IMG/VR virus record: IMGVR_UViG_3300045988_127881
Reading direction: 5' to 3' (one strand)
Length of the DNA: 64,000 nt
Source of the DNA: a virus
This document shows, piece after piece, positions 3,312 to 40,965 of the stretch. Both the position numbers and the translations under genes were made by a program. Under the pieces are notes generated by a model. The model did no database searches, had not been told where the DNA came from, and saw only the letters and a list, made by a program, of their open reading frames with translations. Position 1 is the first letter of the stretch. The number at the start of each line of letters is the position of its first letter.

Positions 3312-3338
3312 TTCTTCTTTATTTTATAGTTAAACAAA

Positions 3339-5572: not shown

Positions 5573-5630
5573 CTCTCTTTGTCTGTCTGTCTCTTTGTCT
5601 CTTTGTCTCTTTGTCTCTTTGTCTGTCTGT
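5573..5630. repeat. 8-bp tandem repeat GTCT(C/G)T(T/C)T, about 7 units
   Basis: Units are in register from 5581 to 5628: GTCTGTCT, GTCTCTTT x4, GTCTGTCT. Part of an imperfect inverted repeat with 5487..5506. Confidence 0.9.
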
Positions 5631-5740
5631 TTTTCCTTTCGTACCCGTCCCGTTTTGCCTGAATGCACGTGTTAACAACCAGTTAAATTCATACATAGAA
5701 CGTTAAATGCAAGGATGTAGGGAAATTAGTTGCTTGTTTA

Positions 5741-5772
5741 TTTGGTTGTATATTTATTTAGTTGTATCTTTG
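5741..5772 (+). promoter_or_regulatory. Bacteroidota-type promoter for the plus-strand small-gene block
   Basis: -33 TTTG at 5741..5744 and -7 TATCTTTG at 5765..5772, 20 nt apart. Confidence 0.5.
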
Positions 5773-5835
5773 TAATACAAAATAAGGGTTGAGGCGTCAA
5801 CCGCTGCAAAGTATTGCAGTCTTGGGAGTAAAAAA

Positions 5836-5867
5836 GTGCCTTTGGTGGTTGCCGCCACCAAAGGCAC
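5836..5867 (+). other. 13-bp perfect hairpin in the 5' leader
   Basis: GTGCCTTTGGTGG / CCACCAAAGGCAC. Two smaller hairpins lie upstream at 5786..5801 and 5803..5818. No U-tract. Confidence 0.7.
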
Positions 5868-5965
5868 GGAAAACTACCGAATCGGCAGCGTATTAGCATA
5901 CGCGTGCAAAGGTAGTATTTATTTCCGAATCTTTGATATTATTAATAACTAAATACTACAAGATC

Positions 5966-6484
5966 ATGGATAATGTAAAGACTTTAGGCGCTCTCAAGAG
6001 AGGTGCAATAACCGAGTTAAACGAATTTTTTGCAAAACCTACAGAAGTATTTAAGGCGCTCCGAGAGATAGCAAAAGATAAAGAGTCTAATTTGTACGCG
6101 ATTCTTTGCGAGTTAGGCGTAAAACCCTCTAAAATCGGTTTTAATTCGTTTGGTAGGTTTTGCGTCTCATTCGGCGGAAACGCTGAGATAGTTTGCGAAG
6201 CAATAAAACGCACGAATGGTATAACATACAAAAGCTATACTATATGTGACAGACAACCAAAAAAGTATATTGATTTACTCGTGCAATTACTCAAAGAAAA
6301 GAGAAAGCGAGAAAGCTATGCTACAAGGTGGCAAAAACACTTTGAGGCACGCGCCGCAAAGGAAGACAAAGCGAACGAAAAGCGTGTAAAAGCACTTGAA
6401 AAAATGGTGTCTGAACTCGTAAAATGCGGTTTGCCCGCTGAAATTGCAAGGGCGAACGCTGTAAACATTTTGAAAATCGCCTGA
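5966..6484 (+). CDS. Hypothetical protein (172 aa)
   Basis: ORF track 5933..6484 uses a TTG start. First ATG is at 5966 (MDNVKTLGALKRG...). Confidence 0.6.
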   Translation: MDNVKTLGALKRGAITELNEFFAKPTEVFKALREIAKDKESNLYAILCELGVKPSKIGFNSFGRFCVSFGGNAEIVCEAIKRTNGITYKSYTICDRQPKKYIDLLVQLLKEKRKRESYATRWQKHFEARAAKEDKANEKRVKALEKMVSELVKCGLPAEIARANAVNILKIA

Positions 6485-6489
6485 ACTTG

Positions 6490-6521
6490 TAGACCTCCCA
6501 AAAATGGGAGGTCTATTTTTT
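6490..6521 (+). terminator. Intrinsic terminator
   Basis: TAGACCTCCCA-AAAA-TGGGAGGTCTA followed by T6. Confidence 0.75.
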
Positions 6522-6522
6522 G

Positions 6523-7237
6523 CCCTTTATGGTACACGGATTCCGTTCGATTCGGAGTAAGGGCACAACATATTTAAGCACTTACAAAGTGCTTAAAGGC
6601 GTGCAAAATGCACGCTGCACGACTACAAACCGCGATTTGTTGGCAGTTGGCCGCGTTGGCTGATAACTTACAAAGTGCGTGCAAAGTGGGACAAATAGCC
6701 GCGTTGGCTACCTACTTATGCACAACCTTTGGCAAATTGTATGGAGGTTGTACGGCAAATTCGCTCTTTGACTTATTGGACAAAAAAATATTGGTTTGCC
6801 TGTAATGTATACAGGCGTGCACGCACTCGCTTAAATAGTTCGGGGTGCGTGCCGAATCCTCGTAACTATTCGCGTGCTATTTTAGTGCGTTGCCGGCCGT
6901 TTTAAATAGGTTGAATCTAAATACATTAATTACGGACGCATCCGTGATTGATTCGGGTAATTTTGACGGCTTTATACCTTCCTATTTTGTACACAAAATC
7001 CGAAAGGAACAAAAGTGCACGCGCCCAGTTTGGGCCGTATGGTAAAAATAGGGCAAAACTTTTCCCTCGTGTAGGGGTTTTTGGCCGTGCCTTTATGGCA
7101 AGGAACGGACAAACAGCGGAAATACAAAGAGAAACGAGTAATTTTTTTTTGGTGGAATGGTTAACCACCTGACGTAACACGTACGCACGCGAAAATTCGT
7201 GTGTACGTGCAAGTATTAACCAATAAAAAATAAAAAT
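6523..7237. other. 715-bp non-coding, hairpin- and repeat-rich region (ncRNA or iteron/origin candidate)
   Basis: Only implausible ORFs. Duplicated 12-13-mers (6580/6666, 6650/6698), GCGTGCAAA x3, and at least 8 hairpins. Confidence 0.6.
7216..7237 (+). promoter_or_regulatory. Array leader motif, degenerate copy
   Basis: TTAACCAATAAAAAATAAAAAT directly before the ATG at 7238. Confidence 0.6.
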
Positions 7238-7477
7238 ATGTCTTTTTGGTGTTATGACAAAAAAGCAATTTCTTGTATGCGTGAAAACGCAAACAAGATA
7301 GAATTTATTTTGCTGCCTCTTGGCGGCAACTTTGACAGCCATGTTAACAACGTTATTACTAACGTTGAGAATTTTGGCTGCACATACGACAGCACAAACG
7401 AAATTTTAGAGGACTTCGTTTGGGAAGCAAAGAGATACGTTGAGTATGTTATTAAAACGTACTACAAAAACGTATAA
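7238..7477 (+). CDS. Hypothetical small protein (79 aa)
   Basis: ORF track. Leader motif upstream and hairpin downstream. Confidence 0.6.
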   Translation: MSFWCYDKKAISCMRENANKIEFILLPLGGNFDSHVNNVITNVENFGCTYDSTNEILEDFVWEAKRYVEYVIKTYYKNV

Positions 7478-7481
7478 CGAT

Positions 7482-7542
7482 GACGCAAGCAATTTGTTTT
7501 GCTTGCGTCAACTTTATTATCAACCCTATAAAACCAATAAAA
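7482..7542 (+). promoter_or_regulatory. Inter-cassette unit: hairpin plus leader motif
   Basis: Hairpin 7482..7509 (GACGCAAGCAA/TTGCTTGCGTC). Leader 7518..7542 TATCAACCCTATAAAACCAATAAAA. Confidence 0.8.
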
Positions 7543-7812
7543 ATGAAAGCTATTGAACTGTTGAAAAGAGTCACAAAACACGATTCGGAATGTCATGTTT
7601 GCTATATCTATGATATGGCAGATATGGATGTAGTAAGCGGAACTTTTGACAAAAAAGCTGAATATTTACTCACAGAAAAACCATTCCGTGATGCTTTTGG
7701 CATACATGTGACTTCAGATTGCGCCTTATACGGCGCAATTTACAGCGAAACGCTGTGCGCTCCCAAAGAGCCAGAGAATAAACTATGGTTTGCGTACATC
7801 ATTGAGGACTAA
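7543..7812 (+). CDS. Hypothetical small protein (89 aa)
   Basis: Track ORF 7480..7812 runs through the hairpin and leader. ATG at 7543 follows the leader motif (MKAIELLKRV...). Confidence 0.6.
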   Translation: MKAIELLKRVTKHDSECHVCYIYDMADMDVVSGTFDKKAEYLLTEKPFRDAFGIHVTSDCALYGAIYSETLCAPKEPENKLWFAYIIED

Positions 7813-7817
7813 AAGGT

Positions 7818-7868
7818 ATTCGGGTGTTTGACGCGCCCGAATGCTACGAAAACCAAAAAACCAATGAT
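7818..7868 (+). promoter_or_regulatory. Inter-cassette unit: hairpin plus leader motif
   Basis: Hairpin 7818..7842 (ATTCGGG/CCCGAAT). Leader 7848..7868 GAAAACCAAAAAACCAATGAT. Confidence 0.7.
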
Positions 7869-8018
7869 ATGAAAGATTTAGTACTTCTTATTTCTGTAAT
7901 AGCATTTGCAATCAGTTTGTTATGCTGTAATTTCCTCGCCATTGTGGCAAGTTTAATCCCGTTTTTCAGTGCCTTCATACCAGAGTTGTATGATGGCGCA
8001 AAAGAGGAAATGCCGTAA
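7869..8018 (+). CDS. Small membrane protein (49 aa)
   Basis: ATG at 7869 after the leader. MKDLVLLISVIAFAISLLCCNFLAIVASLIPFF is hydrophobic. Confidence 0.5.
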   Translation: MKDLVLLISVIAFAISLLCCNFLAIVASLIPFFSAFIPELYDGAKEEMP

Positions 8019-8020
8019 TT

Positions 8021-8082
8021 CTATCGCCTGCAATTTGGTTTGTAGGCGATAGCTTTTTATCAACCCTATAAAACCAATAAAA
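8021..8082 (+). promoter_or_regulatory. Inter-cassette unit: hairpin plus leader motif
   Basis: Hairpin 8021..8052. Leader 8058..8082 is identical to 7518..7542, and identity continues into the first codons. Confidence 0.8.
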
Positions 8083-8505
8083 ATGAAAGCTACATTAAAA
8101 TTCAGTTTCGGCAATGTTGTAATGTCTTCACGCTTAGTTGATGGCGATTATCAATTTAATGGAGACGACTCCCGATTTAACCATCACTACCGCTTTCAGG
8201 TAAGAATCCAATTTAATGAGAATGTAAGATATTTCTCTTATTGGACCTCATTCGAGGACTGGAGAAACGGGAAAGAACAACTTGACGAGTCCGACTACAT
8301 GAACGCATTAAATTGCGTATTGTCGGACTCATACGCTGCACAGTGTTCATTTAAGGACTTTTGCAGCGAGTTCGGTTATAGTGATGATAGCATCAAAGCC
8401 TTGAAAACATACAAGGAATGTAAGCGAAATGCTGAAAGACTTAATAAACTATTCAGCGGTTTGGATTTATTGTCGGTCCAAAACGAACTCGAAGAAATGA
8501 TGTAA
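8083..8505 (+). CDS. Hypothetical protein (140 aa)
   Basis: ORF track. Leader motif directly upstream. Confidence 0.65.
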   Translation: MKATLKFSFGNVVMSSRLVDGDYQFNGDDSRFNHHYRFQVRIQFNENVRYFSYWTSFEDWRNGKEQLDESDYMNALNCVLSDSYAAQCSFKDFCSEFGYSDDSIKALKTYKECKRNAERLNKLFSGLDLLSVQNELEEMM

Positions 8506-8509
8506 AAAA

Positions 8510-8568
8510 CCGACACACCTCTTGCAAGGTGTGTCGGTACATTGTTTAACCCACTTAAAACCAATAAG
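8510..8568 (+). promoter_or_regulatory. Inter-cassette unit: hairpin plus leader motif
   Basis: Hairpin 8510..8537 (CCGACACACCT/AGGTGTGTCGG). Leader 8545..8568 TTTAACCCACTTAAAACCAATAAG. Confidence 0.8.
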
Positions 8569-8814
8569 ATGAAGATTTTCAGTGAACAAAGTTTGCGCCA
8601 TTTCGATTTTTGGGGTGGTGCTCAGGAAAATGCAAATGAATTGTCATGGGAACAATTCGACAACCTTGAATCAATTCTCGAAGATGCCTATCCCGATGGC
8701 ATTGACGCAACCGACTTGAATGACATGATGTGGTTCGAGTTCGACACCATCAAAGAATGGTTAGGAATCGAGGACGAAGAAGACGAGGACGAAGAAGACG
8801 AAGAAGAAGACTAA
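8569..8814 (+). CDS. Small acidic protein with poly-E/D tail (81 aa)
   Basis: ATG at 8569 after the leader. Ends in GIEDEEDEDEEDEEED. Confidence 0.65.
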   Translation: MKIFSEQSLRHFDFWGGAQENANELSWEQFDNLESILEDAYPDGIDATDLNDMMWFEFDTIKEWLGIEDEEDEDEEDEEED

Positions 8815-8817
8815 AAA

Positions 8818-8879
8818 CAGGGTGCGCATTGTCGAAAGTGCGCACCCTGCAATTTATAAACCAATTAAAACCAAATATT
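8818..8879 (+). promoter_or_regulatory. Inter-cassette unit: hairpin plus leader motif
   Basis: Hairpin 8818..8849 (CAGGGTGCGCA/TGCGCACCCTG, loop contains ATTGTCG). Leader 8855..8879. Confidence 0.8.
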
Positions 8880-9194
8880 ATGACATACGTAGTTAATAAC
8901 AGCGAATGCGGAGACAAGAATTTCAAAGTGTACCTGTGGACAGGCGCAGGCTACAATGTAGCCATGTTTGAAGTCTTCGCATTTAACGAAGGACACGCAT
9001 TGGAGTGCGTATTAGCATATTGCGAGGAAAAAGCCCTTTGTGGGCTGTATACCACAGAAGAACAAATAGACGAAGACCTTACAGACGAAGAACGGGACGA
9101 ACTTTATTACTACATCGACCCCACAATGGAAGATAAAAAGGCATTCTCTGCATACGTCCTTCTTGAAAATCTTATGATTGAAAAGGTTGCGTAA
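8880..9194 (+). CDS. Hypothetical acidic protein (104 aa)
   Basis: Track ORF 8730..9194 starts inside the previous gene. ATG at 8880 follows the leader (MTYVVNNSECGDK...). Confidence 0.6.
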   Translation: MTYVVNNSECGDKNFKVYLWTGAGYNVAMFEVFAFNEGHALECVLAYCEEKALCGLYTTEEQIDEDLTDEERDELYYYIDPTMEDKKAFSAYVLLENLMIEKVA

Positions 9195-9218
9195 TGCAAC
9201 ATGCGTAGTGTTTAGTAG

Positions 9219-9276
9219 GCTGTGCGGCTTTATTGTCGCACAGCTAACTTTTTAACCACTAAAAACAAAACCAATT
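9219..9276 (+). promoter_or_regulatory. Inter-cassette unit: hairpin plus leader motif
   Basis: Hairpin 9219..9244 (GCTGTGCG/CGCACAGC). Leader 9251..9276 TTTAACCACTAAAAACAAAACCAATT. Confidence 0.8.
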
Positions 9277-9765
9277 ATGAAAAATTTATCAGAACTCAGC
9301 ACAAGCGAACTGCTCAACGTAATAGAGGATAACGAAACCCTGTCAAACAGGCTTTACGAACTCATAGAGCAATCCGCTATGGGTTGGGTAGGCGAAAAGT
9401 TAGAAGTAATTAGAAACTCTCTTAAAGATTGGAGCATAGGTTTCTATAATTACAACTTCCTCGATGTCGTTGACTACGAAAAGTTTGTGGACTCACTCGT
9501 AGAGTATAAAGGCATTTTCGGCCTGTCAGACAAGGCTGACAAACTATTGTCGCACTGTCTGAAACTGCGATGGAGCAACCTTTTCGATTACTATGCCGAA
9601 AGGCTAAAGGATTTAATCCTCGATGAGGAATTTAACAGCGAAACGGATATAGACTACAACAATATGGAGTACTACACCGAAATCTACGCTGACCAATTCG
9701 ATGATTACCTAATCAATGACGATGGCGAAATCATACAACAAACCATTGTCGGGCATGTCGCATAA
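9277..9765 (+). CDS. Hypothetical acidic protein (162 aa)
   Basis: ORF track. Leader motif upstream. Confidence 0.65.
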   Translation: MKNLSELSTSELLNVIEDNETLSNRLYELIEQSAMGWVGEKLEVIRNSLKDWSIGFYNYNFLDVVDYEKFVDSLVEYKGIFGLSDKADKLLSHCLKLRWSNLFDYYAERLKDLILDEEFNSETDIDYNNMEYYTEIYADQFDDYLINDDGEIIQQTIVGHVA

Positions 9766-9769
9766 CAAT

Positions 9770-9833
9770 GCTTGGGCGTATTTATACACGCCCAAGCAAC
9801 ACAATTTTTTAACCCACTTAAAACCAATAAATT
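9770..9833 (+). promoter_or_regulatory. Inter-cassette unit: hairpin plus leader motif
   Basis: Hairpin 9770..9797 (GCTTGGGCGT/ACGCCCAAGC). Leader 9808..9833. Confidence 0.8.
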
Positions 9834-10589
9834 ATGAGAATGTACAGCGACGCGAAAGGATTCACAATGATTGACGGAACTCTTACAGAAGTGACATTAA
9901 AAAAATTGATTGTCACCCGTCAAAGTGTCGAAGACGAGGAATACGAAGTAACAACCATTTTCCAAGGTCCTGACGGCAAAGAGCACAGCTCTCAAATCCC
10001 TATACAGATGTATAGTAGTGTCGAGGATTACGAAAAAGGAGAACAGGCGTGCTATGAAGTTTGTAGCTCGCCTTTCTACATCCGTCCCGACGGATTCCGA
10101 GGCATTGACGAAGCATGGATTTTCGTTGACGGAGAACCTGTGACAATAGACATCAGACCTTTGGAAGTAGTTTACGACTACGAACAAAGAACTTGGACTT
10201 GTGAAGGCGTTCCTCAAACGAATATCTTCCGTACTAAAGAAGAATGCCTGTCTTTCAACGAGTATGACGTAAAACATGCCGACGGCAGCGTTACAAAGCG
10301 TGTCGGTATCAACAAACTCGTAATGCTCGACAACGACCAAATGGCGTTATTCGACACGCTGAAACAGACAATTCAGCAACTCAAAGACAACAATGTATTG
10401 TTGATGCCTGACTACGATGGCGACATAAGAGCATTTAACCTCCGTAATGTCAAAGAATGGGACTGCGATTATGACGAACCCGAAGAAGGAGAAGGCTTTG
10501 AAGAAGTGTCACGCGAACACGATTCCTTCCAAGGAATCAGCATTCCAGCATATTCCTTGGATTGCCACCTCTGCATGAAGCGTAAGTAA
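9834..10589 (+). CDS. Hypothetical protein (251 aa), paralog of 12336..13118
   Basis: ORF track. Shares the KEECLS(F/Y)NEY...AFNLRNV / AYNVRDC...(M/I)KRK C-terminal pattern with 12336..13118. Confidence 0.7.
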   Translation: MRMYSDAKGFTMIDGTLTEVTLKKLIVTRQSVEDEEYEVTTIFQGPDGKEHSSQIPIQMYSSVEDYEKGEQACYEVCSSPFYIRPDGFRGIDEAWIFVDGEPVTIDIRPLEVVYDYEQRTWTCEGVPQTNIFRTKEECLSFNEYDVKHADGSVTKRVGINKLVMLDNDQMALFDTLKQTIQQLKDNNVLLMPDYDGDIRAFNLRNVKEWDCDYDEPEEGEGFEEVSREHDSFQGISIPAYSLDCHLCMKRK

Positions 10590-10594
10590 CCACA

Positions 10595-10656
10595 TTCCCC
10601 ACGTCCATTGTCGGGCGTGGGGAAACGTATTATCAACCACTTAAAACCAATTTACA
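10595..10656 (+). promoter_or_regulatory. Inter-cassette unit: hairpin plus leader motif
   Basis: Hairpin 10595..10624 (TTCCCCACG/CGTGGGGAA). Leader 10631..10656. Confidence 0.8.
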
Positions 10657-11016
10657 ATGAAACAGAATAAAAACAAAGTGCCTGTTTATTATGCGTATGT
10701 GGCCTCATCTCCTTTCAATGGCGAAAGATTCGACCTCGAAACGCTGAATTATGACAGCCTTTTGCAACGCATGATTCCTCGTGACAAAGGAAACATTTGC
10801 CTTAATTTCGTTTTCAGCAAGCTGCGCAAATGCGACAAAATAATGTCGGAAAATGAAAGGTACGCTCTCATAATAAACAATGCACCTTTCGGAGTTAGGC
10901 TCGATTTATATCGCAAAATAACGGAAAAGGAAATAAAGGAAACTATTCAGCGAGTGGGTGTCACCCGTTTCGCCATCAAAGAAGTACAAGATATTGCAAA
11001 ATCAATGGGACTTTAA
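10657..11016 (+). CDS. Hypothetical protein (119 aa)
   Basis: ORF track. Leader motif upstream. Confidence 0.65.
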   Translation: MKQNKNKVPVYYAYVASSPFNGERFDLETLNYDSLLQRMIPRDKGNICLNFVFSKLRKCDKIMSENERYALIINNAPFGVRLDLYRKITEKEIKETIQRVGVTRFAIKEVQDIAKSMGL

Positions 11017-11021
11017 GCACA

Positions 11022-11084
11022 TTTGCCGTGTGGTCGTAAAACTACACGGCAAACCATTTTCAACCACCTAAAACCAATCCAAAA
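11022..11084 (+). promoter_or_regulatory. Inter-cassette unit: hairpin plus leader motif
   Basis: Hairpin 11022..11053 (TTTGCCGTGT/ACACGGCAAA). Leader 11057..11084. Confidence 0.8.
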
Positions 11085-11879
11085 ATGAAAAAGTACAAAT
11101 TAACTGACGAAACAACTATTGCCCTTGGTGTTACACTTTATAGAATTGTAGCACTAATTGACTTTGCTGACGTGAAAAAAGGCGACAAAGGAGGATTTGT
11201 AAAATCTGAAGAAAACCTTTCACAAAATGGCGATTGTTGGGTCTATGGAGATGCTAAGGTATTTGACAGAGCCAAAGTCTTTGAAGATGCCAAGGTATAT
11301 AGCAAAGCTGAGGTATATGGCGATGCCGAGGTATATGGCAAAGCTCGAGTCGATAACAAAGCTCGAGTCTTTGGCAATGCTTTTGTCTTTGGCAATGCTT
11401 ATGTCTTTAGCTATGCTGAAGTCTGTGACTATGCTATTGTCTGTGAAGATGCTGCCGTACATGGCTATGCTGCTGTCTTTGGCGAAGCTACAATAGGCGA
11501 CAGCGCTCGTGTATGGGGCAATGCTGAAGTTTATGGCAACTCTGAAATATGTGACAATGCTCATGTAGGTGACAATGCTGAAATCTGTGGCAATACTAAA
11601 GTCTTTGGAGATGCTGGAGTCTTTGGAGATGCTGAAATCTATGGCGATGCTGAAATAAGTGGTCAAAGTGACTACATAGTATTCAAAAATTGGTGGAGCA
11701 GCGGACGTTACTTCACTTGGACACGAAGCAACAACAAATGGAAAGTTGGTGACTTCTATGGAACTGGCGAAGAATTGATAAGGAAAGCCTATGCCGATAG
11801 CAAAATGAGCGGAAAAGAGTACGAACGCATCGTGAAATATGTTGAGAGTATACTCAATGATGATGCTATTTCTATCTGA
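11085..11879 (+). CDS. Beta-helix hexapeptide-repeat protein (264 aa), paralog of 50089..50832
   Basis: About 24 consecutive 6-aa repeats (V[FY]G[DN]A[KE]-like) between conserved N- and C-terminal domains (YIVFKNWWSSGRYFTWTRSNN...). Confidence 0.75.
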   Translation: MKKYKLTDETTIALGVTLYRIVALIDFADVKKGDKGGFVKSEENLSQNGDCWVYGDAKVFDRAKVFEDAKVYSKAEVYGDAEVYGKARVDNKARVFGNAFVFGNAYVFSYAEVCDYAIVCEDAAVHGYAAVFGEATIGDSARVWGNAEVYGNSEICDNAHVGDNAEICGNTKVFGDAGVFGDAEIYGDAEISGQSDYIVFKNWWSSGRYFTWTRSNNKWKVGDFYGTGEELIRKAYADSKMSGKEYERIVKYVESILNDDAISI

Positions 11880-11911
11880 TTTTGCTAATCTTATGAAATG
11901 AAGGAATCTTA

Positions 11912-11979
11912 TTGCGTATCACTTTTGTCGGTGATACGCAAACTTTGTATAACCTATTAAACCAATAAAGCAAAACAAC
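11912..11979 (+). promoter_or_regulatory. Inter-cassette unit: hairpin plus leader motif
   Basis: Hairpin 11912..11941 (TTGCGTATCAC/GTGATACGCAA). Leader 11948..11970 TATAACCTATTAAACCAATAAAG. Confidence 0.75.
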
Positions 11980-12201
11980 ATGAAAGCAAAAGAATTTTTG
12001 AAAGACCTGCTTCGATTGGATTTGGTCACTGGCTCAACCTATATGAAGTCATCATACGAATTGAAGATAATCAGTGGCGAGCTAAAGCCAAGGTCGCTGT
12101 ATTATTTCTCATTCAAAAAAAGTGACTTGAAGGCCGAGCCTGACGTAACGCTTACTTTAGGAGGTGGAGATGTCCAGTACCTCTGGAAAATTGAGTCGTG
12201 A
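11980..12201 (+). CDS. Hypothetical small protein (73 aa)
   Basis: ORF track. Confidence 0.55.
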   Translation: MKAKEFLKDLLRLDLVTGSTYMKSSYELKIISGELKPRSLYYFSFKKSDLKAEPDVTLTLGGGDVQYLWKIES

Positions 12202-12272
12202 AACACGCGGGAACGTTTCTTGCAACGCCTGCCGCATTTGCAAGGAATGTAATTTTTCAACAACTAACCTTA

Positions 12273-12335
12273 TTGTCGTGTGGTCTTAACATCACACGAC
12301 AAACCATTTTATTAACCACTAAAAACAAACCAATT
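12273..12335 (+). promoter_or_regulatory. Inter-cassette unit: hairpin plus leader motif
   Basis: Hairpin 12273..12302 (TTGTCGTGTG/CACACGACAA). Leader 12311..12335. Confidence 0.8.
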
Positions 12336-13118
12336 ATGATGACCTACAACGAAAACTCATGCGAAATTTTCTCTACTAATGAAGCTTTCTTCTTCGACGA
12401 AGAAAAAGCTCAGTTACTACAAGTTCTACTTGTAGAAACTCATTTCATACGCGATAGCAAGTCCCTGGGAACAGTCCATGCACGAACCTACGCAAAAGTC
12501 GTGGACAGCGATAAAATTATCGAAATTGAAGAAACCGAGGTCTATGCGTCAAGGCTCGATTTTGAAAGAGGGAAACGTCTTGCATGCAGCACAAACAACC
12601 CGTTCAAATGTCTTGCTGCCTCGTATGGAAGTGACGTGGTTTGGACATTCCAGCACGGGTGTCCTGTTTCACAAAAAGTGTCGGATATAAAAGTTGTCAA
12701 ATACGACTACGATTATGACCGATTCACAAGTACCGAATTACCCGACAGAGAACACATCTACCCAACAAAAGAAGAATGCCTCTCTTACAACGAATACGAA
12801 ATTGTCGACGAGGAAGGAACTCGCACAATAAAAGGTTGTAATGCACTCATTCAATTAACAAGAGAACAGGAGGAACTTGTAAAGCAGTTCGAGCAACTTT
12901 GCAAAAAAATGCAAGACGAGGGTATTTTGCTCGCAAGTAATTGCTGCGAAGCATTCAGAGCATACAACGTGCGCGATTGTCAAGATTACGAGTTCTACTT
13001 CACAAACGAAGCATCTGAAGATTTTGAGCAATGCGACCGAGATTGCGGACGATACGTAAACGCACAAAACATCTACGAGAGCGGAGACGATTTTGAACTC
13101 TACATCAAACGCAAGTAA
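12336..13118 (+). CDS. Hypothetical protein (260 aa), paralog of 9834..10589
   Basis: Track ORF 12198..13118 reads through the hairpin and leader. ATG at 12336 follows the leader (MMTYNENSCEIF...). Confidence 0.65.
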   Translation: MMTYNENSCEIFSTNEAFFFDEEKAQLLQVLLVETHFIRDSKSLGTVHARTYAKVVDSDKIIEIEETEVYASRLDFERGKRLACSTNNPFKCLAASYGSDVVWTFQHGCPVSQKVSDIKVVKYDYDYDRFTSTELPDREHIYPTKEECLSYNEYEIVDEEGTRTIKGCNALIQLTREQEELVKQFEQLCKKMQDEGILLASNCCEAFRAYNVRDCQDYEFYFTNEASEDFEQCDRDCGRYVNAQNIYESGDDFELYIKRK

Positions 13119-13124
13119 TCCAAT

Positions 13125-13179
13125 CCTGCCAAGTCGCTAAACACTTGGCAGGTACACAAACCAACAAAAACCAATTATT
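13125..13179 (+). promoter_or_regulatory. Inter-cassette unit: hairpin plus leader motif
   Basis: Hairpin 13125..13152 (CCTGCCAAGT/ACTTGGCAGG). Leader 13156..13179. Confidence 0.8.
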
Positions 13180-13479
13180 ATGAAAGAAACTCTGTTAAAG
13201 ACACTCCGTTTGAACAATCGCGACTATCTGAAAATTCTACATAGGACAAAACAGACTATTATTGATTATGTCGCAAGCAAAGGCAATAACTACGAGTTCA
13301 AAAAATACTACGGCCACTTAATGACAAGGCATAGTAAGGAAACTTTCGTAATCCGAAGAATATCCGTAAATAGAGGAATAGCAAACGTATATAGCGACTA
13401 CAATTATTGGTTCTACTTAGATGACTTCGATTTACAAAATCTGAACAAAATAATTGAGGCGCTATCAATAGACGAGTGA
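13180..13479 (+). CDS. Hypothetical small protein (99 aa), first of three tandem paralogs
   Basis: ORF track. C-terminal pattern is shared with 13543..13857 and 13932..14240. Confidence 0.6.
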   Translation: MKETLLKTLRLNNRDYLKILHRTKQTIIDYVASKGNNYEFKKYYGHLMTRHSKETFVIRRISVNRGIANVYSDYNYWFYLDDFDLQNLNKIIEALSIDE

Positions 13480-13484
13480 TTAAA

Positions 13485-13542
13485 ATGCAGCATAATTTTG
13501 TTATGTGCTGCATACCTCACAACCCAACTAAAACCAATTAAC
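13485..13542 (+). promoter_or_regulatory. Inter-cassette unit: hairpin plus leader motif
   Basis: Hairpin 13485..13513 (ATGCAGCA/TGCTGCAT). Leader 13518..13542. Confidence 0.8.
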
Positions 13543-13857
13543 ATGAAAAGTTTATTAGAACTATCCGAAGAACATCGTCAGATGCTTAACGACATCTCCG
13601 ACAAGGACATGTGCGCCATCGAAACGTTCTTGCAACATCGCGAAAGGAACACCTACTATTTCCGTACAGCTGTCAAACTGCACGACATTGTCAACAATCT
13701 CACATTCAAGGCCATCGGGGTAGGTATCACACACAAAGGGACTTTATCCGCTATAATTGACGAATATTATAGCATAGACCTCATGCAATTCGACTACCTG
13801 TCAATTAACCGGGTCTTAATGCAAATCGGCATGGAAACAGACAACAAGGTGAGCTGA
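13543..13857 (+). CDS. Hypothetical small protein (104 aa), tandem paralog
   Basis: ATG at 13543 after the leader (MKSLLELSEEHRQ...). Confidence 0.6.
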   Translation: MKSLLELSEEHRQMLNDISDKDMCAIETFLQHRERNTYYFRTAVKLHDIVNNLTFKAIGVGITHKGTLSAIIDEYYSIDLMQFDYLSINRVLMQIGMETDNKVS

Positions 13858-13895
13858 TACAAGGCAGCGCGAGGGGTTCGACTCTCCTCACACCT
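13847..13895 (+). ncRNA. Mini tRNA-like element (acceptor-like stem plus canonical T arm only)
   Basis: AGGTGAG...CACACCT closing stem (6 of 7 pairs). T arm is AGGGG-TTCGACT-CTCCT. Overlaps the stop codon of the previous ORF and occupies the usual inter-cassette hairpin position. Confidence 0.3.
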
Positions 13896-13897
13896 GC

Positions 13898-13931
13898 AAA
13901 ACCAACAAACCAACTTAAAAAAACCAACGCA
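13898..13931 (+). promoter_or_regulatory. Array leader motif, extended copy
   Basis: AAAACCAACAAACCAACTTAAAAAAACCAACGCA before the ATG at 13932. Confidence 0.7.
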
Positions 13932-14240
13932 ATGGATAAAAATATTGCCAGCAATACACTTACAGACAAGTTAAGGAATGACGCAATCTCATCTATCAAT
14001 GAATATTGCAAAGAACTTGACTTCGACGGAGTTCTCCGCCTCAACAATCCTATACAAGGCTACAACGTCCACACAAATGAGCCTATTACCATTGTGGGTG
14101 TCCGTATCGGCACAGACAACGCTGCATTAAGTGTTGAAGCGAAAGGATATATCATTGATTATGCCTACGAATTACAGGACGCTGACATCAACTCGCTACT
14201 TTCCATTTCAGTAGCTATTATGGACGGACTTACTTATTAA
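13932..14240 (+). CDS. Hypothetical small protein (102 aa), tandem paralog
   Basis: ORF track. Confidence 0.6.
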   Translation: MDKNIASNTLTDKLRNDAISSINEYCKELDFDGVLRLNNPIQGYNVHTNEPITIVGVRIGTDNAALSVEAKGYIIDYAYELQDADINSLLSISVAIMDGLTY

Positions 14241-14353
14241 AATCTCTCCTAATGTGGCATTTGGTTGACACATTGGGGCATCTCAAACCAACTAAAATCA
14301 CGTACAACGCCAAAAATGGCATTGTCGCACACCCTCCGTATTACAAAAACAAC

Positions 14354-14361
14354 TATATTTG
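14354..14361 (+). promoter_or_regulatory. Candidate internal -7 box TATATTTG
   Basis: Matches TAnnTTTG in the 228-nt gap 14241..14468. No clean -33. Confidence 0.35.
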
Positions 14362-14447
14362 CAATTAGTACAGATAAAGAACAACGCTGATAATATTTTT
14401 CATTCTATCATTAGTGGTGCGGATTTACTTCCATGCCACTAACCATG

Positions 14448-14468
14448 TTTAACCAATTAAAACCAATA
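14448..14468 (+). promoter_or_regulatory. Array leader motif copy
   Basis: TTTAACCAATTAAAACCAATA before the ATG at 14469. Confidence 0.8.
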
Positions 14469-15215
14469 ATGAGATATTTTTTTTATTACGCGTCTGTTGC
14501 CTATATACAGGATACCTATAACAAAAGGTTCTTGGATAAATTTAGAAGTGAAGGAGATTATCGTAAGCTACTACTAATAGCTGAGACCTATGACTCATAC
14601 GGTGCCATAGACTTGAAATACACCTATAAAAGTGCTACGCATAACAATGGTGACACTTTGCTGATAGAAGATGAGCATTACGCTTTGACGTATAATTCTT
14701 CAAATGGCGGCACCTATGAGTTGTTTCGCAAGGAGACAGGAATAGGACTCCGTAACTATATTGCTCAAAACGGATTACCTTCTGAGGTATCAAAGGACAT
14801 TGAAGAGTTGGCAAAATCGCACTCAGAACCGACCCCAAAAATTAAGGCAAAGGAAATCGTTAGCGCCATTTTCAAGTACGGGCTGTTAAGCGCATACGAG
14901 GCGTGCGAGCTAAAAGAGGAGTACAAAACCCTATCCGACAAAAAGAAAAAGTATAAAGGCTGGACCACTGAGGAGAAATACCTTAGTGATAACTGCATCA
15001 CGCCCATAGCTTACGGCATGATTGTTTGTGGCGCACTATGCGCCATCTGTTTCCTTGCTTGCATTGGCTCTGTATTTCTCATCTCCGCCTGTGGGTGGGG
15101 TGGTGCAGTAGTCTATGCTGCACTTCTTTTCATCGTCCTTTACATAGCCTCTATTTACTTCTACCAGAGGTTCTATTGGTACGAAATGCCTAAGTATAAC
15201 ATCGAAAACAGATAA
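14469..15215 (+). CDS. Membrane-anchored hypothetical protein (248 aa)
   Basis: ATG at 14469 after the leader. C-terminal hydrophobic segments (IAYGMIVCGALCAICFLACIGSVFLISACGWGGAVVYAALLFIVLYIASIYF). Confidence 0.6.
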   Translation: MRYFFYYASVAYIQDTYNKRFLDKFRSEGDYRKLLLIAETYDSYGAIDLKYTYKSATHNNGDTLLIEDEHYALTYNSSNGGTYELFRKETGIGLRNYIAQNGLPSEVSKDIEELAKSHSEPTPKIKAKEIVSAIFKYGLLSAYEACELKEEYKTLSDKKKKYKGWTTEEKYLSDNCITPIAYGMIVCGALCAICFLACIGSVFLISACGWGGAVVYAALLFIVLYIASIYFYQRFYWYEMPKYNIENR

Positions 15216-15226
15216 CACACACCATC

Positions 15227-15439
15227 ATGACTATAATTGCTATTATTTGCGTCCTTATTATTGCAGCTCTCTTTTTCGGGGGTCTCTGGTATATTGCAGC
15301 ACTCATCATCGGCATTCCGCTCGCCTATGGCTTGCACAAGCTTCTCATGATGTTCTTCGCTGACTATTTCAAGAAGAAACTTCAGAAATACTGCGAAAAG
15401 AAAGGACTGACTTTCGACCTTGACGAACTGCCCGACTAA
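15227..15439 (+). CDS. Small membrane protein (70 aa)
   Basis: ORF track. Two hydrophobic helices. Confidence 0.55.
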   Translation: MTIIAIICVLIIAALFFGGLWYIAALIIGIPLAYGLHKLLMMFFADYFKKKLQKYCEKKGLTFDLDELPD

Positions 15440-15456
15440 ACCTGTGTCGAGAAAAG

Positions 15457-15508
15457 CCATCACTTGTGTTGTTACAAGTGATGGTACTATTACCAATAAA
15501 ACCAATTT
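15457..15508 (+). promoter_or_regulatory. Inter-cassette unit: hairpin plus leader motif
   Basis: Hairpin 15457..15484 (CCATCACTTGT/ACAAGTGATGG). Leader 15488..15508 TATTACCAATAAAACCAATTT. Confidence 0.8.
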
Positions 15509-16354
15509 ATGAAAACAACCCTTTATGAAGCATACAGGAAAAAATACCCTAACTATGCAGATAAAACCAAAGAAAGGTTCGTAACCTCCACAGGGTGCGA
15601 TTTTACTTGGGGTAACATGACCAAGTCTAACCTTTACGACTATGTCAGCTATCTAAAGACGGTCATGGCAAAGTCGTCAGCACGCACAATGTGCGCAATG
15701 CTAAAATCTGTCTTGCGCACCTACGAAGATGAGATTACGCTACCAAAAAATTGGGAAGATTCCATCTACGTCAAAAAGGAGGCTTCTCAGCAAGTATTCC
15801 TCTCCGACGACGAAATCAAAATGGTTTCTAACTACAACCCAACAACCGAAAAAGAGCGCATCGTGAAAACAATGTTTCTCTTGGGTTGCCTTACAGGGGC
15901 AAGACACTCCGACTTCTTGAAGTTCTCTAAAGCAAATATCACGCAGGAGGGCTTTTTAAGATACGTGTCCATCAAGACGCACATCGAGGCTATTGTCCCC
16001 ATAGCACCAATGGTTAACAGGCTGATTGACGACTTGTCTGCCATCAAAGACACTTCTATGGCCGACACCACATTCAACCGAATATTACGGGATATTTGCC
16101 AAAGTGTGGGCATCGACTCCGAATGCACGCTTTACAGGAGGGGCGAATTTTCCACGTCCAACAAATGTTGCTTTGTGTCATCACACGCTGCACGCAGGTC
16201 TTTCGCCACAAATCTCTACCTTAGAGGGGCTGACCTTTACTCCATCTCCAAAATGATGGGACATTCCTCTGTCGACATGACAGCTGGATATATTTGTTGC
16301 GGACTACGAAACCTCTCACCCGAAGTTAAAGATTACTTTGAACAATTTTGTTGA
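15509..16354 (+). CDS. Tyrosine recombinase (281 aa, no arm-binding N-domain); second recombinase in the window
   Basis: Catalytic signature TGARHSD ... SHAARRSF ... GHSSVDMTAGYI (R, H-x-x-R, H, Y). Confidence 0.85.
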   Translation: MKTTLYEAYRKKYPNYADKTKERFVTSTGCDFTWGNMTKSNLYDYVSYLKTVMAKSSARTMCAMLKSVLRTYEDEITLPKNWEDSIYVKKEASQQVFLSDDEIKMVSNYNPTTEKERIVKTMFLLGCLTGARHSDFLKFSKANITQEGFLRYVSIKTHIEAIVPIAPMVNRLIDDLSAIKDTSMADTTFNRILRDICQSVGIDSECTLYRRGEFSTSNKCCFVSSHAARRSFATNLYLRGADLYSISKMMGHSSVDMTAGYICCGLRNLSPEVKDYFEQFC

Positions 16355-19228: not shown

Positions 19229-19281
19229 ATTTCAAAAAATAAAGTAGTACTTTTGTAGCGTCAATCTTCATTGACACCAAA

Positions 19282-19303
19282 ATTTATTGGTTTTTTTTGT
19301 TAA
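19282..19303 (-). promoter_or_regulatory. Leader-motif-like copy on the minus strand
   Basis: Minus strand reads TTAACAAAAAAAACCAATAAAT, 54 nt upstream of the ATG at 19228. Confidence 0.5.
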
Positions 19304-19307
19304 TAGT

Positions 19308-19336
19308 AGCCCAGGCTAAAAGCCTGGGCTTTTTTT
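19308..19336. terminator. Hairpin terminator at the end of the tape measure gene
   Basis: AGCCCAGGC / GCCTGGGCT. The T-run lies on the plus strand and the A-run on the minus strand. Confidence 0.6.
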
Positions 19337-39197: not shown

Positions 39198-39267
39198 TGG
39201 CACATTAGGTAATGGCCGCAAGGTCAGGGCTTTGCAATAGTGCTGGGGTTCGATGCCCCGTGTGCCA
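39198..39267 (+). ncRNA. tRNA-like element 1 (70 nt), non-canonical body
   Basis: Perfect 7-bp acceptor stem TGGCACA/TGTGCCA. T arm TGGGG-TTCGATG-CCCCG. Only a weak anticodon-like arm (loop TTGCAAT, GCA). No normal D arm; GGCC-GCAA-GGTC hairpin instead. Confidence 0.45.
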
Positions 39268-39294
39268 CTAATATTAACTAAAACCTCTAAGAAC

Positions 39295-40781: not shown

Positions 40782-40929
40782 GCAGGTGATAGGCCGTTAA
40801 TCGGATAGACGGCAGAAGATAGTACATTGAACTCGCTACCATTATGATGCTGGATAGCCCTTGGTAGCGCGTTCTTTTTTTTGCGAAACGTTAGGACATT
40901 AGCTGGTTCGACTCCAGCCACCTGCGCCA
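40782..40929 (+). ncRNA. tRNA-like element 3 (148 nt) with encoded CCA and a roughly 90-nt insertion in place of the anticodon domain
   Basis: Acceptor stem GCAGGTG/CACCTGC, then G, then CCA. D-like arm GCCG-13 nt-CGGC. T arm GCTGG-TTCGACT-CCAGC. Inner 8-bp hairpin CGCTACCA/TGGTAGCG. Shares GTGATAG, GGATAG and CATTAGC blocks with element 2. Confidence 0.45.
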
Positions 40930-40965
40930 AATAAAAGAAAGAGAAACAAAATAGAAAAATAAATC

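Follow-up and report, generated by a model that had tools for sequence, protein, structure and literature searches.

The 64-kb window analysed here, which is the whole stretch of viral DNA under study, holds a run of 17 small plus-strand ORFs, all in the same orientation and each preceded by a conserved leader (Table 1). The only ORF of the run without a leader, g15227, begins 11 nt past the preceding stop. Among the accessory cassettes, g11085 encodes a hexapeptide/beta-solenoid protein, and g9834 and g12336 are paralogues. The last leader belongs to a tyrosine recombinase gene, a conserved core gene of this phage group. Outside the array, the phage encodes an ERF single-strand-annealing recombinase, a PD-(D/E)XK nuclease, an S24-type repressor and HTH proteins. 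The 8-kb region is probably where a LoVEphage-related temperate siphovirus of gut Prevotella/Bacteroidales keeps its plastic set of accessory genes. The anti-defence content proposed in a preliminary description of this DNA is only hinted at, by an ArdA gene in the array of one relative; the window's own cassettes are ORFans.

Table 1. Array units, promoters, tRNA-like folds and associated genes in the window.
Feature	Position	Strand	Fold or box	3' flank	Leader	ATG or remark
Unit 1	7178..7237	+	hairpin 7178-7209, 12 bp, loop 8		caagTATTAACCAATaaaaaataaaaat	7238
Unit 2	7481..7542	+	hairpin 7481-7510, 12 bp, loop tttgtt, 30 nt	A-C	..TATCAACCCTATAAAACCAATaaaa	7543
Unit 3	7815..7868	+	hairpin 7815-7845, 13 bp, loop 5	A-C	gAAAACCAAAAAACCAATgat	7869
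Unit 4	8021..8082	+	hairpin 8021-8052, 13 bp, loop tttggt		as unit 2, ATGAAAGCTA included	8083
Unit 5	8509..8568	+	hairpin 8509-8538, 12 bp, loop cttgca, 30 nt, z = -7.3	A-C	attgTTTAACCCACTTAAAACCAATaag	8569
Unit 6	8818..8879	+	hairpin 8818-8849, 13 bp, loop 6		caatttaTAAACCAATTAAAACCAAAtatt	8880
Unit 7	9218..9276	+	hairpin 9218-9245, 11 bp, loop tttatt		aactttTTAACCACTAAAAACAAAACCAATt	9277
Unit 8	9769..9833	+	hairpin 9769-9798, 11 bp, loop 8, 30 nt	A-C	..tttTTAACCCACTTAAAACCAATaaatt	9834
Unit 9	10595..10656	+	hairpin 10595-10624, 12 bp, loop attgtc, 30 nt	A-C	gtatTATCAACCACTTAAAACCAATttaca	10657
Unit 10	11022..11084	+	hairpin 11022-11053, 13 bp, loop 6	ACCA-like	ttttCAACCACCTAAAACCAATccaaaa	11085
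Unit 11	11912..11979	+	hairpin 11912-11941, 12 bp, loop tttgtc, 30 nt, z = -7.3	A-C	tttgTATAACCTATTAAACCAATaaagcaaaacaac	11980
Unit 12	12273..12335	+	hairpin 12273-12302, 12 bp, loop cttaac, 30 nt	ACCA	ttttATTAACCACTAAAAACAAACCAATt	12336
Unit 13	13125..13179	+	hairpin 13125-13152, 10 bp, loop 8	TAC	acAAACCAACAAAAACCAATtatt	13180
Unit 14	13485..13542	+	hairpin 13485-13513, 10 bp, loop 9	A-C	ctcaCAACCCAACTAAAACCAATtaac	13543
Unit 15	13847..13931	+	tRNA-like fold 13847-13895: closing stem GGTGA/(T)CACC, D-like hairpin GCTG-atacaagg-CAGC, T arm AGGGG-TTCGACT-CTCCT		three AACCAAC repeats	13932
Unit 16	14411..14468	+	imperfect hairpin 14411-14442, 9+3 bp, loop tttact, 32 nt		ccatgTTTAACCAATTAAAACCAATa	14469
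Unit 17	15456..15508	+	hairpin 15456-15485, 13 bp, loop 4, 30 nt	A-C	tATTACCAATAAAACCAATtt	15509 (recombinase gene)
Extra unit	19272..19330	-	canonical terminator hairpin 19330-19308		ACTATTAACaaaaaaAACCAATaaattttggtgtca	19271 (21-codon mini-ORF)
Canonical Bacteroidota two-box promoter	5741..5772	+	TTTG-N20-TATCTTTG			upstream of g5966 and array
Divergent partner promoter	5119-5088	-				
-7-box match	6958..6965	+	TAATTTTG			430-nt non-coding stretch right before unit 1
Canonical two-box promoter	39048-39078					upstream of 39198-39294 fold
tRNA-like fold and leader	39198..39294	+	ARAGORN 'tRNA-???'	A-C	ACTAATATTAACTAAAACC / TAATATTAACTAAAACC..	39295
T-arm-like hairpin and leader	40885..40965	+	GCTGG-TTCGACT-CCAGC		A-rich	before ERF gene
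17 accessory cassette ORFs	7238..15439	+				49-264 aa, mostly ORFans
Tyrosine recombinase	15509..16354	+				281 aa, no arm-binding domain
ERF single-strand-annealing recombinase	40966-41556	+				
PD-(D/E)XK nuclease	41553-42431	+				

The leader takes the form T(T/A)AACC(A/C)..TAAAACCAAT; it is A/C-rich, nearly G-free and contains AACCA half-sites about 10-11 nt apart, with two or three tandem copies of the half-site in some units. Both motif and array stand far above chance, which confirms the preliminary description. AAAACCAAT has 15 exact matches in 64 kb against 1.27 ± 1.09 expected from shuffles, 12 of them on the plus strand within 7530-15506, and, when up to 3 mismatches are allowed, the 19-nt consensus TTAACCANTTAAAACCAAT has 10 matches against 0.18 expected, every one inside the array. 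The end of the CCAA(T) core lies 1-13 nt from the ATG in the 17 leader ORFs, and a TAACC box lies 14-25 nt from it, in the form TA(t/c)(t/c)AACC at about 18 nt. The reported 36-nt identity of two leaders can be read directly (7516-7551 and 8056-8091). G accounts for 3.3% of array leaders versus 15.2% for other genes; A occupies positions -13, -12 and -3 in 94%, 88% and 82% of array genes, respectively; and AAA is the second codon in 10/17 array genes versus 5/57 other genes. These features match the positive translation determinants reported for Bacteroidetes. An inverted leader copy is real (19286-19294, minus strand), but it precedes a mini-ORF rather than the ATG of the gene previously called 'TerS-like' (18710-19228, minus strand), a label for which no support was found.

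All 14 hairpins listed earlier were found in place and scored z = -3.5 to -7.3 relative to shuffled sequence; the (A/T)TTGTCG motifs were likewise where stated. To that list are added the tRNA-like fold of unit 15 and the hairpin of unit 16, which fits the class imperfectly. The hairpins had been described as unique to each gene; their stem sequences are indeed unrelated, but they form one structural class: a span of 30 nt, made of a ~12-bp stem and a loop of 6 nt, with A-C and then a T-rich tract on the 3' side. Across 38 intergenic hairpins from four diverged arrays (the window, L132, L127 and L133), likewise unrelated in stem sequence, the span is exactly 30 nt in 24, the stem 12 bp in 22 and the loop 6 nt in 25, and AC directly follows 22. 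Control hairpins elsewhere in the window (n=58) span 23-36 nt, with AC after 7. The 12-bp rule is not universal, because hairpins of the L214 lineage have just 9 bp, with loops of 4-5 nt. Further, the statement that the hairpins lack U-tracts does not hold: a T-rich run begins 2-4 nt past the stem, behind the conserved A-C.

The same signature is found at the ends of host-type tRNA genes. In 26 Bacteroidota tRNA genes (fetched loci), C74 is encoded in all 26, A73 in 15 and CCA in only 3, and trailers are often T-rich. The array hairpins share the A-C (N73-C74) and the T/U-rich trailer, and a plain 30-nt hairpin of ~12 bp is as long as a tRNA's acceptor and T stems stacked together. Judged by sequence, the array hairpins mimic host tRNA gene ends. 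In relatives, tRNA-like folds occupy the same intergenic position, with an acceptor-like stem, a conserved GG in the middle loop and a T arm, GGTTCGAnTCC, that occurs 11 times in L125 and 11 times in L127, always on the plus strand and never on the minus strand. Their closing stem averages 5.5 bp versus 4.0 ± 0.2 in permutations; ARAGORN and Rfam called neither a tRNA nor any known family among them. The window itself holds three tRNA-like folds, of which the one before the ERF gene is the weakest (z = -0.3). Another, with its leader, precedes the first gene of the second early block, from which the leader had been said to be absent. The place of this copy within a 5' UTR, with a canonical promoter ~120 nt upstream of it, is evidence for the module working within a transcript. 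The uniform hairpin class, the tRNA-gene-end signature and the relatives' tRNA-like folds are additions to the preliminary description, which had overlooked the common geometry and the likeness to tRNA.

Comparison of related genomes bears out the earlier suggestion of a cassette-exchange junction organising a hypervariable gene set. Five near-identical genomes differ by entire cassettes; nucleotide identity jumps at the cassette borders, and hybrid junctions lie inside the leader. The unit 8 hairpin is joined to another leader in L001 to L003, and the unit 13 hairpin is fused via a hybrid leader to g13543 in L002 and L004; the unit 2 stem shows a compensatory change in L004. More distant lineages have two cassette families in common only, in changed order. 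Relatives gain, lose and reorder genes precisely at the hairpin/leader units, with the junctions in the leader. As the arms of every hairpin are perfectly matched and no chimeric hairpins were seen, crossovers do not fall inside hairpins. The leader, repeated ~17 times in one orientation, supplies 20-36 nt of homology through which the ERF recombinase could delete, insert or swap cassettes, each presumably moving as leader-gene-hairpin. ERF and the PD-(D/E)XK nuclease are likely the enzyme set for such short-homology exchange.

Canonical two-box promoters lie upstream of the array, and none lies within the units. Checked against the host -7 box TAnnTTTCA (Bacteroidota consensus) and the -33 box, the leader gave no match, in agreement with the preliminary description; -7-box matches do occur at 14354 and 14394, in the 228-nt spacer that unit 16 ends. 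No sigma factor or RNA polymerase was found among the 54 other ORFs of the window. The earlier interpretation is partly supported: its promoter option is weakened by these results, while tRNA-end mimicry, the G-free leader and A at -12/-13 lend support to a processing and translation reading.

Our preferred reading, held tentatively and with slightly less than even confidence, is a two-part intercistronic module, in which a tRNA-end mimic provides an RNA 3' end and the leader serves as translation start and recombination handle. The first part, either a plain ~12-bp helix or a tRNA-like fold with T arm and GG loop, each with A-C and a U-rich trailer behind it, imitates the 3' end of a host tRNA gene and would form and protect the 3' end of the upstream message and release the next one. 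Most likely, host RNase Z and/or RNase P would cut a long polycistronic transcript started at the canonical promoters upstream of the array; termination at the hairpin seems the less likely route. Where the fold is tRNA-like, the stop codon lies directly against the closing stem and would be removed or exposed by an RNase P cut, which favours a 3'-side cut. The second part, the G-free leader, would be the short 5' untranslated region of the following gene, keeping the start site unpaired beside a very stable hairpin and putting A at -3, -12 and -13, as preferred by ribosomes of the Shine-Dalgarno-less Bacteroidota. Against this module stand the conserved C's of AACC/CCAAT, which a need for an unpaired A-rich leader does not explain, the variable leader-ATG spacing and the translation of the phage's other genes without the motif.

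Much less would be asked of the leader if its copies were alike merely through shared ancestry and gene conversion of a recombination handle, with no expression function beyond that of a generic Bacteroidota leader. Leaders are mosaic or hybrid among relatives, the upstream half varies freely (AACCC, AACT, AAACC) while cassettes remain intact, and an ERF protein is encoded. However, lineages with unrelated cassettes and recombinases only 51-68% identical retain the TAACC box, the lack of G and the placement with respect to the ATG, and 12 units have the AAAACCAAT core without a mismatch in spite of 76-90% identity in the flanking coding DNA, which makes this account improbable. We give similarly little credence to the leader as a DNA operator akin to Cluster A mycobacteriophage stoperators, silencing or timing the whole array, its half-sites spaced by one helical turn so as to bind a phage protein dimer. 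The motif is asymmetric, intergenic and in a single orientation relative to transcription, its half-site spacing fits, and the S24-type repressor and HTH proteins are candidate binders; but copies are absent both from the regulatory regions (38955-39190) beside the repressor gene and from the divergent promoters (5.1-5.8 kb), the L214 lineage has one AACCAA per unit, L125 and L127 leaders are without the second half, and the tandem half-sites resemble recombination products.

The co-oriented array terminates at the tyrosine recombinase gene, and its hairpins have core-site geometry, with 12-bp inverted repeats flanking six central nucleotides that include a semi-conserved TTG, as if the recombinase inserted and excised cassettes at folded, attC-like hairpins or at leaders. 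This integron-like role is very unlikely: the protein scores 34 bits against a 265-bit integron-integrase cutoff and falls far under the Xer cutoffs, it is also core in LoVEphage-like phages having no such array, its gene is co-oriented at the distal array end, and the observed junctions lie in the leader, not the hairpin. Further, the hairpin arms differ at every site and have neither R/L boxes nor extrahelical bases. A possible but rather unlikely alternative compares the units to PeSLs, the hairpin being a terminator and the leader a non-canonical promoter, on whose TA(t/c)(t/c)AACC box an alternative sigma factor of the host, or a phage factor not recognised as such, would act, and each cassette a transcription unit of its own (a moron). 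A strong hairpin stands directly 5' of every gene; the T-rich run past the stem could support termination, and each gene would then need its own promoter. The TAACC box leaves room for a start site and has TA..CA ends in common with the host -7 box, and cassettes function at differing positions and orders. Yet the core TTT of that box is unmatched, the -33 box is absent, the window search yielded no polymerase or sigma factor, and in four units the downstream half of the leader, AAAACCAAT, is only 1-2 nt from the ATG, too near for a -10 element. A terminator needs no tRNA-like shape, fixed helix length or N73-C74 tail; the window's canonical terminators, with adjacent T tracts and of a type common in Bacteroides, look different; and the equivalent module at 39.2 kb lies behind a canonical promoter. 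Nevertheless, T4-type PeSLs have been shown to have the same architecture and evolutionary behaviour as the array units.

The array of 17 co-oriented small-ORF cassettes seen in the preliminary description between about 7.2 and 15.5 kb is real. The core AAAACCAAT was counted 15 times, compared with 1.27 +/- 1.09 in shuffled sequence, and 12 of the copies lie on the + strand between 7.5 and 15.5 kb. Similarly, the 19-nt leader consensus, searched with up to three mismatches, gave 10 matches where 0.18 were expected, all of them inside the array. The start codon of the 17 ORFs (49-281 aa), ATG in every case, lies 1-13 nt (mostly 1-6) past the CCAA(T) core. The information profile of the leader consists of the strong core, a weaker box (T/C)AACC(A) about 10 nt upstream and a T-rich stretch before that box; the array leader copies are confined to the + strand of the accessory region. 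G makes up only 3.3% of the 30 nt before array genes, compared with 15.2% before other window genes, and no AGGAG occurs in the leader. Further, A is found at -13, -12 and -3 in 94, 88 and 82% of the array genes, respectively, and AAA is the second codon in 10 of the 17. The positive determinants reported for Bacteroidetes translation are of this very type, together with an unpaired start region.

The viral contigs were scanned with AACCN{3,4}TAAAACCAAT, and the matches listed were mostly chance single ones. One contig with 22 copies (L016) was rejected as a similar system, the copies being a coding repeat. Among the matches listed, similar leaders with AAACCAAT close to the start are found only in L060 and L036. 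In these otherwise unrelated contigs (1195-5729 and 134-3047, respectively, both on the - strand) the motif stands 6-8 nt before many ATGs, often without hairpins, and the start-proximal core may extend beyond this phage group. The array of L214, a prophage in a Prevotella MAG, is similar and has very homogeneous spacers of about 50 nt (700-10000), which read TAA-cctcttatcc, a 9-bp hairpin TCCTCTCTG..CAGGGAGGA, (A/G)(A/G)CTAT(T/A)AACCAA, 12-15 nt and ATG; they contain one AACCAA only and do not follow the 12-bp rule described below. In the window itself, a mini-ORF of 21 codons (19206-19271, -) comes after an inverted leader copy and overlaps the start of a 172-aa ORF (18710-19228). The label 'TerS-like' given earlier to the latter finds no support, as the ORF has no Pfam or PHROG match.

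All 14 hairpins listed in the preliminary description are present and far more stable than shuffles; the 15 array hairpins counted here have 10-13 bp and z values of -3.5 to -7.3. They had been called gene-specific, which holds for their unrelated stem sequences but not for their uniform geometry, which makes them one structural class. The array is thus more structured than was first seen. Window stems are 12 or 13 bp long in 11 of 15 hairpins and the loop has 6 nt in nine. Across the intergenic hairpins of four diverged arrays (those of the window, L132, L127 and L133), the span is exactly 30 nt in 24 of 38, with 12-bp stems in 22, hexaloops (often nTTGnn) in 25 and A-C coming next in 22. Among control hairpins from other parts of the window, spans vary between 23 and 36 nt without a peak, and AC comes next in 7 of 58. 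In the orthologous hairpins of five close genomes, where there is little divergence, 787 pair comparisons showed two double changes, along with single changes that preserve pairing in 15 cases and disrupt it in 13. In L004, one of these near-identical relatives, the hairpin after an extra cassette (3940-3970, cctgccaagtgtttagtgacttggctgg) is the reverse complement, with two mismatches, of the window hairpin at 13125-13152, so that the same stem is used with an inverted loop. In a terminator scan, the T-rich run of the array hairpins begins 2-4 nt past the stem, behind A-C, and seven of them pass a lax + strand scan. Canonical terminators with a T tract are common in Bacteroides, and those of the window, in which the T tract is adjacent (e.g. 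19308-19330 and 17066-17040), differ in form from the array hairpins.

More elaborate structures take the place of many hairpins in two distant loci with the same array architecture, L125 and L127, whose homologues of the small tyrosine recombinase at the distal end of the window array are 62% and 51% identical to it. Most intergenic spacers of these loci hold a T arm, and GGTTCGAnTCC occurs in 11 copies per locus, all on the + strand. The fold is closed by an acceptor-like stem stacked on the T stem; it further has, in the middle, a loop or small hairpin that ends in GG (like G18-G19 of a D-loop), and the T arm, which has a 5-bp stem and a TTCRANY loop closed by G53-C61 and is found in about 25 copies in L125, L127, L133, L132 and L131. 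Plain 12-bp hairpins do not form such a T arm. The closing stem, whose sequence covaries, has a mean of 5.5 bp, compared with 4.0 +/- 0.2 (maximum 4.7) in 500 permutations; a permutation test was used and not a covariance model because a MAFFT alignment of the elements aligned the T arm and GG loop but failed on the 5' closing strand. The upstream gene's stop codon directly adjoins the closing stem, and the element is followed by A-C. In L127 and L133, tRNA-like elements alternate with 12-bp/hexaloop hairpins at equivalent positions, so that either form seems able to stand in for the other. ARAGORN finds no tRNA genes with a full cloverleaf and anticodon arm in the arrays, and its sole call is an aberrant one in the other early block of the window (39-57 kb). 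Rfam searches (E <= 1) with L125, L127 and two window regions returned only the T-arm fragment of the tmRNA model and no match to the tRNA model; the tRNA-like elements belong to no known Rfam family. A further T-arm-like hairpin, GCTGG-TTCGACT-CCAGC, stands with an A-rich leader directly before the ERF gene (40885-40965), and this fold may be due to chance because it is no better than shuffles.

The resemblance extends to the end of host tRNA genes. In tRNA, the acceptor stem (7 bp) is stacked on the T stem (5 bp) to give a helix of 12 bp. All 26 Bacteroidota tRNA genes in the fetched loci (L208-L260) encode C74 and 15 encode A73; full CCA is encoded in only three, and trailers are often T-rich. 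A partial CCA may be a general feature of Bacteroidota tRNA genes, with a bearing on how 3' ends are made. As 12 bp correspond to the stacked acceptor and T stems, a 12-bp helix with N73-C74 and a U-rich trailer reproduces the way in which host tRNA genes end, and the array hairpins carry this signature. Among the enzymes that mature tRNA ends, RNase Z also accepts minihelices. RNase P is described (PMC4919913) as a molecular ruler acting on the acceptor/T-stem part of tRNA.

The complete unit is also found at the head of the other early block. There, a canonical promoter TTTG-N-TATCTTTG (39048-39078, +) faces away from the S24 repressor gene, and about 120 nt past it lies a cloverleaf-like element, followed by A-C, TAATATTAACTAAAACC and the first early ORF (ATG 39295). 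The start chosen by the ORF caller, 39253, falls inside the T arm and is probably wrong. With the whole module in the 5' UTR behind a canonical promoter, it cannot be required as a promoter there and would be harmful as a full terminator.

The window is the genome of a temperate siphovirus-type phage, the principal genes of which are collected in the table together with the tRNA-like folds. Its large terminase is 56% identical to those of Bacteroides phage LoVEphage and the isolates BI-TP1 and PV4-TP1, and the closest genomic relative of the small recombinase (68%) is in an uncultured Prevotella genome. A genome scan with the single recombinase sequence gave no match and an alignment-based scan found the relatives; megablast of the array against GenBank phages gave no match. 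In several Bacteroides genomes (L215, L217, L218, L219, L224 and L229, 10001-12300), a 43%-identical recombinase homologue lies about 1.4 kb from tRNA-Asp(GTC), and in a B. reticulotermitis prophage the arm-domain integrase abuts tRNA-Gly(CCC) (L208 16250-16324).

Principal genes and tRNA-like folds of the window, with positions and strands as far as assigned
Feature	Position	Strand	Remark
tRNA-like fold, unit 15 of the array	13847-13895	+	TTCRANY T arm present
tRNA-like fold	39198-39268	+	TTCRANY T arm present; ARAGORN 'tRNA-???'
Weaker T-arm-like fold	~40885-40925	+	TTCRANY T arm present; z = -0.3
Tape-measure gene	19335-26771	-	2478 aa
Large terminase	32233-33933		
Major capsid, portal and primase genes	within window		
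Arm-domain integrase	36958-38172	-	
S24-type repressor	38226-38954	-	
ERF recombinase and PD-(D/E)XK nuclease	40966-42431		ERF gene 40966-41556

Cassettes are exchanged at the units. The earlier suggestion of a cassette-exchange junction, with content varying among relatives, is borne out by whole-cassette differences in four IMG/VR contigs (L001-L004) with 98-99% identical recombinases. Naming each ORF by its start in the window, L001 lacks g9834 to g11980, L002 and L004 lack g13180, L004 has an additional gene between g8569 and g8880, and L003 has a different gene replacing g7869. Identity at the nucleotide level changes abruptly where one cassette meets the next; in L001, for instance, it goes from 76% to 100%. 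Junctions keep the hairpin that belongs to the upstream gene and have a hybrid leader, as where the 13125 hairpin leads via ..AAACCAAC joined to TAAAACCAATTAAC to g13543, implying that the travelling unit is leader-gene-hairpin and that crossovers fall inside the leader. The two arms match perfectly in all hairpins, and chimeric ones were not seen, which argues that crossovers do not occur within hairpins. ERF-type annealing recombinases act on short, diverged homology. In the more distant lineage of L132 and L207 (68% recombinase identity), only g11085-like and g9277-like genes are shared, in reversed order. Indels are also found past the recombinase, at 16657-17037 and 17830-18660, in stretches without leader units (L001 and L003 lack g16657, and L001 also lacks g17830 and most of g18154), so that mosaicism is not confined to the units.

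Searches of Pfam and PHROGs with the window cassettes returned almost nothing, only a few PHROGs of unknown function, and the cassettes of the window itself are ORFans. What cassettes might do is hinted at only by the array of L125, which contains an ArdA anti-restriction gene (PF07275) and a GP88-family gene (1820-2341). Two paralogue cassettes of the window (9834-10589 and 12336-13118; 32% identity over 175 aa, E = 7e-24) belong to no known family. Hexapeptide/beta-solenoid (bactofilin-like) proteins recur, at 11085-11879 in the window array and 50089-50832 in the other early block; the L132 array has two such genes, 3181-3726 and 7156-8061 (PHROG 7964, function unknown).

The units could in principle act as promoters, as in the PeSLs (promoter-early stem-loops) of T4-type phages. 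Such a model draws on the stable stem-loops and on the plastic ORFan region with bounded indels, and it falls short on the host primary-sigma promoter, which is absent from the units. In Segatella copri, a -7 box TAnnTTTCA (>70% of start sites) and a -33 box AAAnnTTTGG are described, the mean 5' UTR is about 70 nt and a ribosome-binding consensus is absent. Searching for the host boxes TAnnTTTCA/TAnnTTTG and TTTG revealed a canonical two-box promoter upstream of the array (5741-5772, +), with a divergent partner, and no two-box promoters inside units, where a single chance -7 match lies in the loop at 13493. In four units, the core AAAACCAAT is too near the ATG for a -10-like element. A reading of the TTGTCG loop as a -33 box with constant spacing to the TAACC box was discarded, since the two are 13 to about 58 nt apart. 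Further, a search of 54 additional window ORFs for a phage sigma factor or an RNA polymerase gave neither. The unusually long intra-array spacer of 228 nt at 14241-14468 has -7-box matches at 14354 and 14394, a hairpin (14252-14277) and a possible 38-codon ORF (14252-14368), and may be an internal promoter or a decayed cassette.

Collectively, the departure of the leader from host promoter boxes, the negative search for a sigma factor or RNA polymerase, the proximity of the core to the ATG, the low G content, the A positions and the module at 39.2 kb favour an RNA-level role, in processing or 3'-end formation and in translation start, and the PeSL-like promoter model appears unlikely. The molecular roles of the units are those that we infer from sequence. 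We tentatively prefer a model in which each unit would be an intercistronic module made of a tRNA-end mimic and a leader, a reading that falls a little short of being probable. More specific, and rather doubtful, is the proposal that Prevotella/Bacteroidales phages punctuate their accessory transcripts with tRNA 3'-end mimics, at which RNase Z and/or RNase P would cut them into stable single-gene messages. The mimics would range from the full acceptor/D-loop/T-arm fold to a bare 12-bp minihelix with N73-C74; host tRNA-maturation nucleases would cut the polycistronic RNA, and each single-gene message would start with the conserved G-free leader.

The expression signals of Bacteroidota phages, whose hosts lack Shine-Dalgarno sites, are little known. 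The hairpin-AC-leader-ATG arrangement is a compact natural module by which, it appears, any small gene can be expressed wherever it has landed, and the array shows gene-shuffling sites in a group of phages that is related to LoVEphage, a gut phage of high prevalence. It also offers a testable idea, namely that phage mRNA is processed by tRNA-end nucleases, which would be recruited by the hairpins of fixed length and the tRNA-like folds. If the punctuation proposal is true, organelle-style tRNA punctuation would have been reinvented by a bacteriophage in a form portable with each cassette. It would account for the uniform 30-nt hairpins and would provide a processing part usable in Shine-Dalgarno-less Bacteroidota and a multi-gene expression tool for Bacteroides and Prevotella; the cassettes would be a reservoir of host-takeover functions, as the ArdA gene in one relative's array suggests. 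If it is false, the units would still be the first PeSL/SAS-like elements described for Bacteroidota phages.

Several known systems resemble the array in part. Like integrons, it consists of small, co-oriented ORFan cassettes, most of them without a promoter, with a hairpin-forming site after each one and a tyrosine recombinase adjacent. However, the recombinase has no IntI signature (with TIGR02249 it reaches 34 bits, where the cutoff is 265, and matches in the C-terminal 40 aa only) and is far below the curated cutoffs for Xer. The attC core (RYYYAAC/GTTRRRY), imperfect stem and extrahelical bases are absent from the hairpins, whose stems are perfect and share no boxes. Further, recombinase homologues are a conserved core gene in LoVEphage-like contigs and prophages without an array, and the gene is oriented like the cassettes and placed distally in the array, unlike the position and orientation in integrons. 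These scores, the array-less homologues, the position and the crossovers outside hairpins rule out an integron integrase. Lambdoid morons are autonomous small expression units lying between phage genes, and the stoperators of Cluster A mycobacteriophages are asymmetric intergenic motifs oriented with transcription. Unlike these, the units do not each have a canonical promoter, and the motif is absent at repressor-controlled promoters, with no AACCAA-type copies on the repressor side (38955-39190) or at 5088-5772.

In organellar and eukaryotic tRNA punctuation, t-elements and mascRNA, tRNA-like structures that lie between coding regions or behind them set RNA ends via RNase P and RNase Z, and for tRNA-like processing signals the acceptor/T-arm 'top half' suffices. 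The units share with tRNA punctuation the placing of tRNA-like structures between coding regions, most copies here being, as predicted from sequence, a bare 12-bp helix with N73-C74. A literature search found no report of tRNA-like punctuation in phages, and we know of no tRNA-like processing of phage mRNAs or in Bacteroidota.

The SAS/ESAS of Cluster K mycobacteriophages, of unknown function and with a proposed role in translation start (Pope et al. 2011, PMC3203893), are similar as an asymmetric motif a few nt before starts (3-8 nt in SAS, 1-13 nt here), in one orientation, at non-structural genes, with a strong preference for ATG and often with an upstream inverted repeat. However, SAS holds a Shine-Dalgarno core, and ESAS repeats are sequence-conserved, imperfect and thought to be protein-binding DNA (PMC3203893), whereas the units have no such core and their repeats are sequence-unique, perfectly paired and of constant length. 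The PeSLs (Arbiol et al. 2010, PMC2839356; Comeau et al. 2014, PMC4122927) are likewise composites of a stem-loop and an expression signal before ORFans in hyperplastic regions; they bound indels and swaps between close relatives, and recombination between neighbouring copies explains deletion or insertion of single genes. The units match them in evolutionary behaviour and layout but fail the defining promoter test. PeSLs have a perfect host sigma-70 promoter and a Shine-Dalgarno sequence, with promoter and terminator activities shown (PMC2839356; PMC4122927), whereas the leader of the units matches no host promoter box and their hairpins have a fixed tRNA-like geometry, in a Bacteroidota host that does without Shine-Dalgarno sites.
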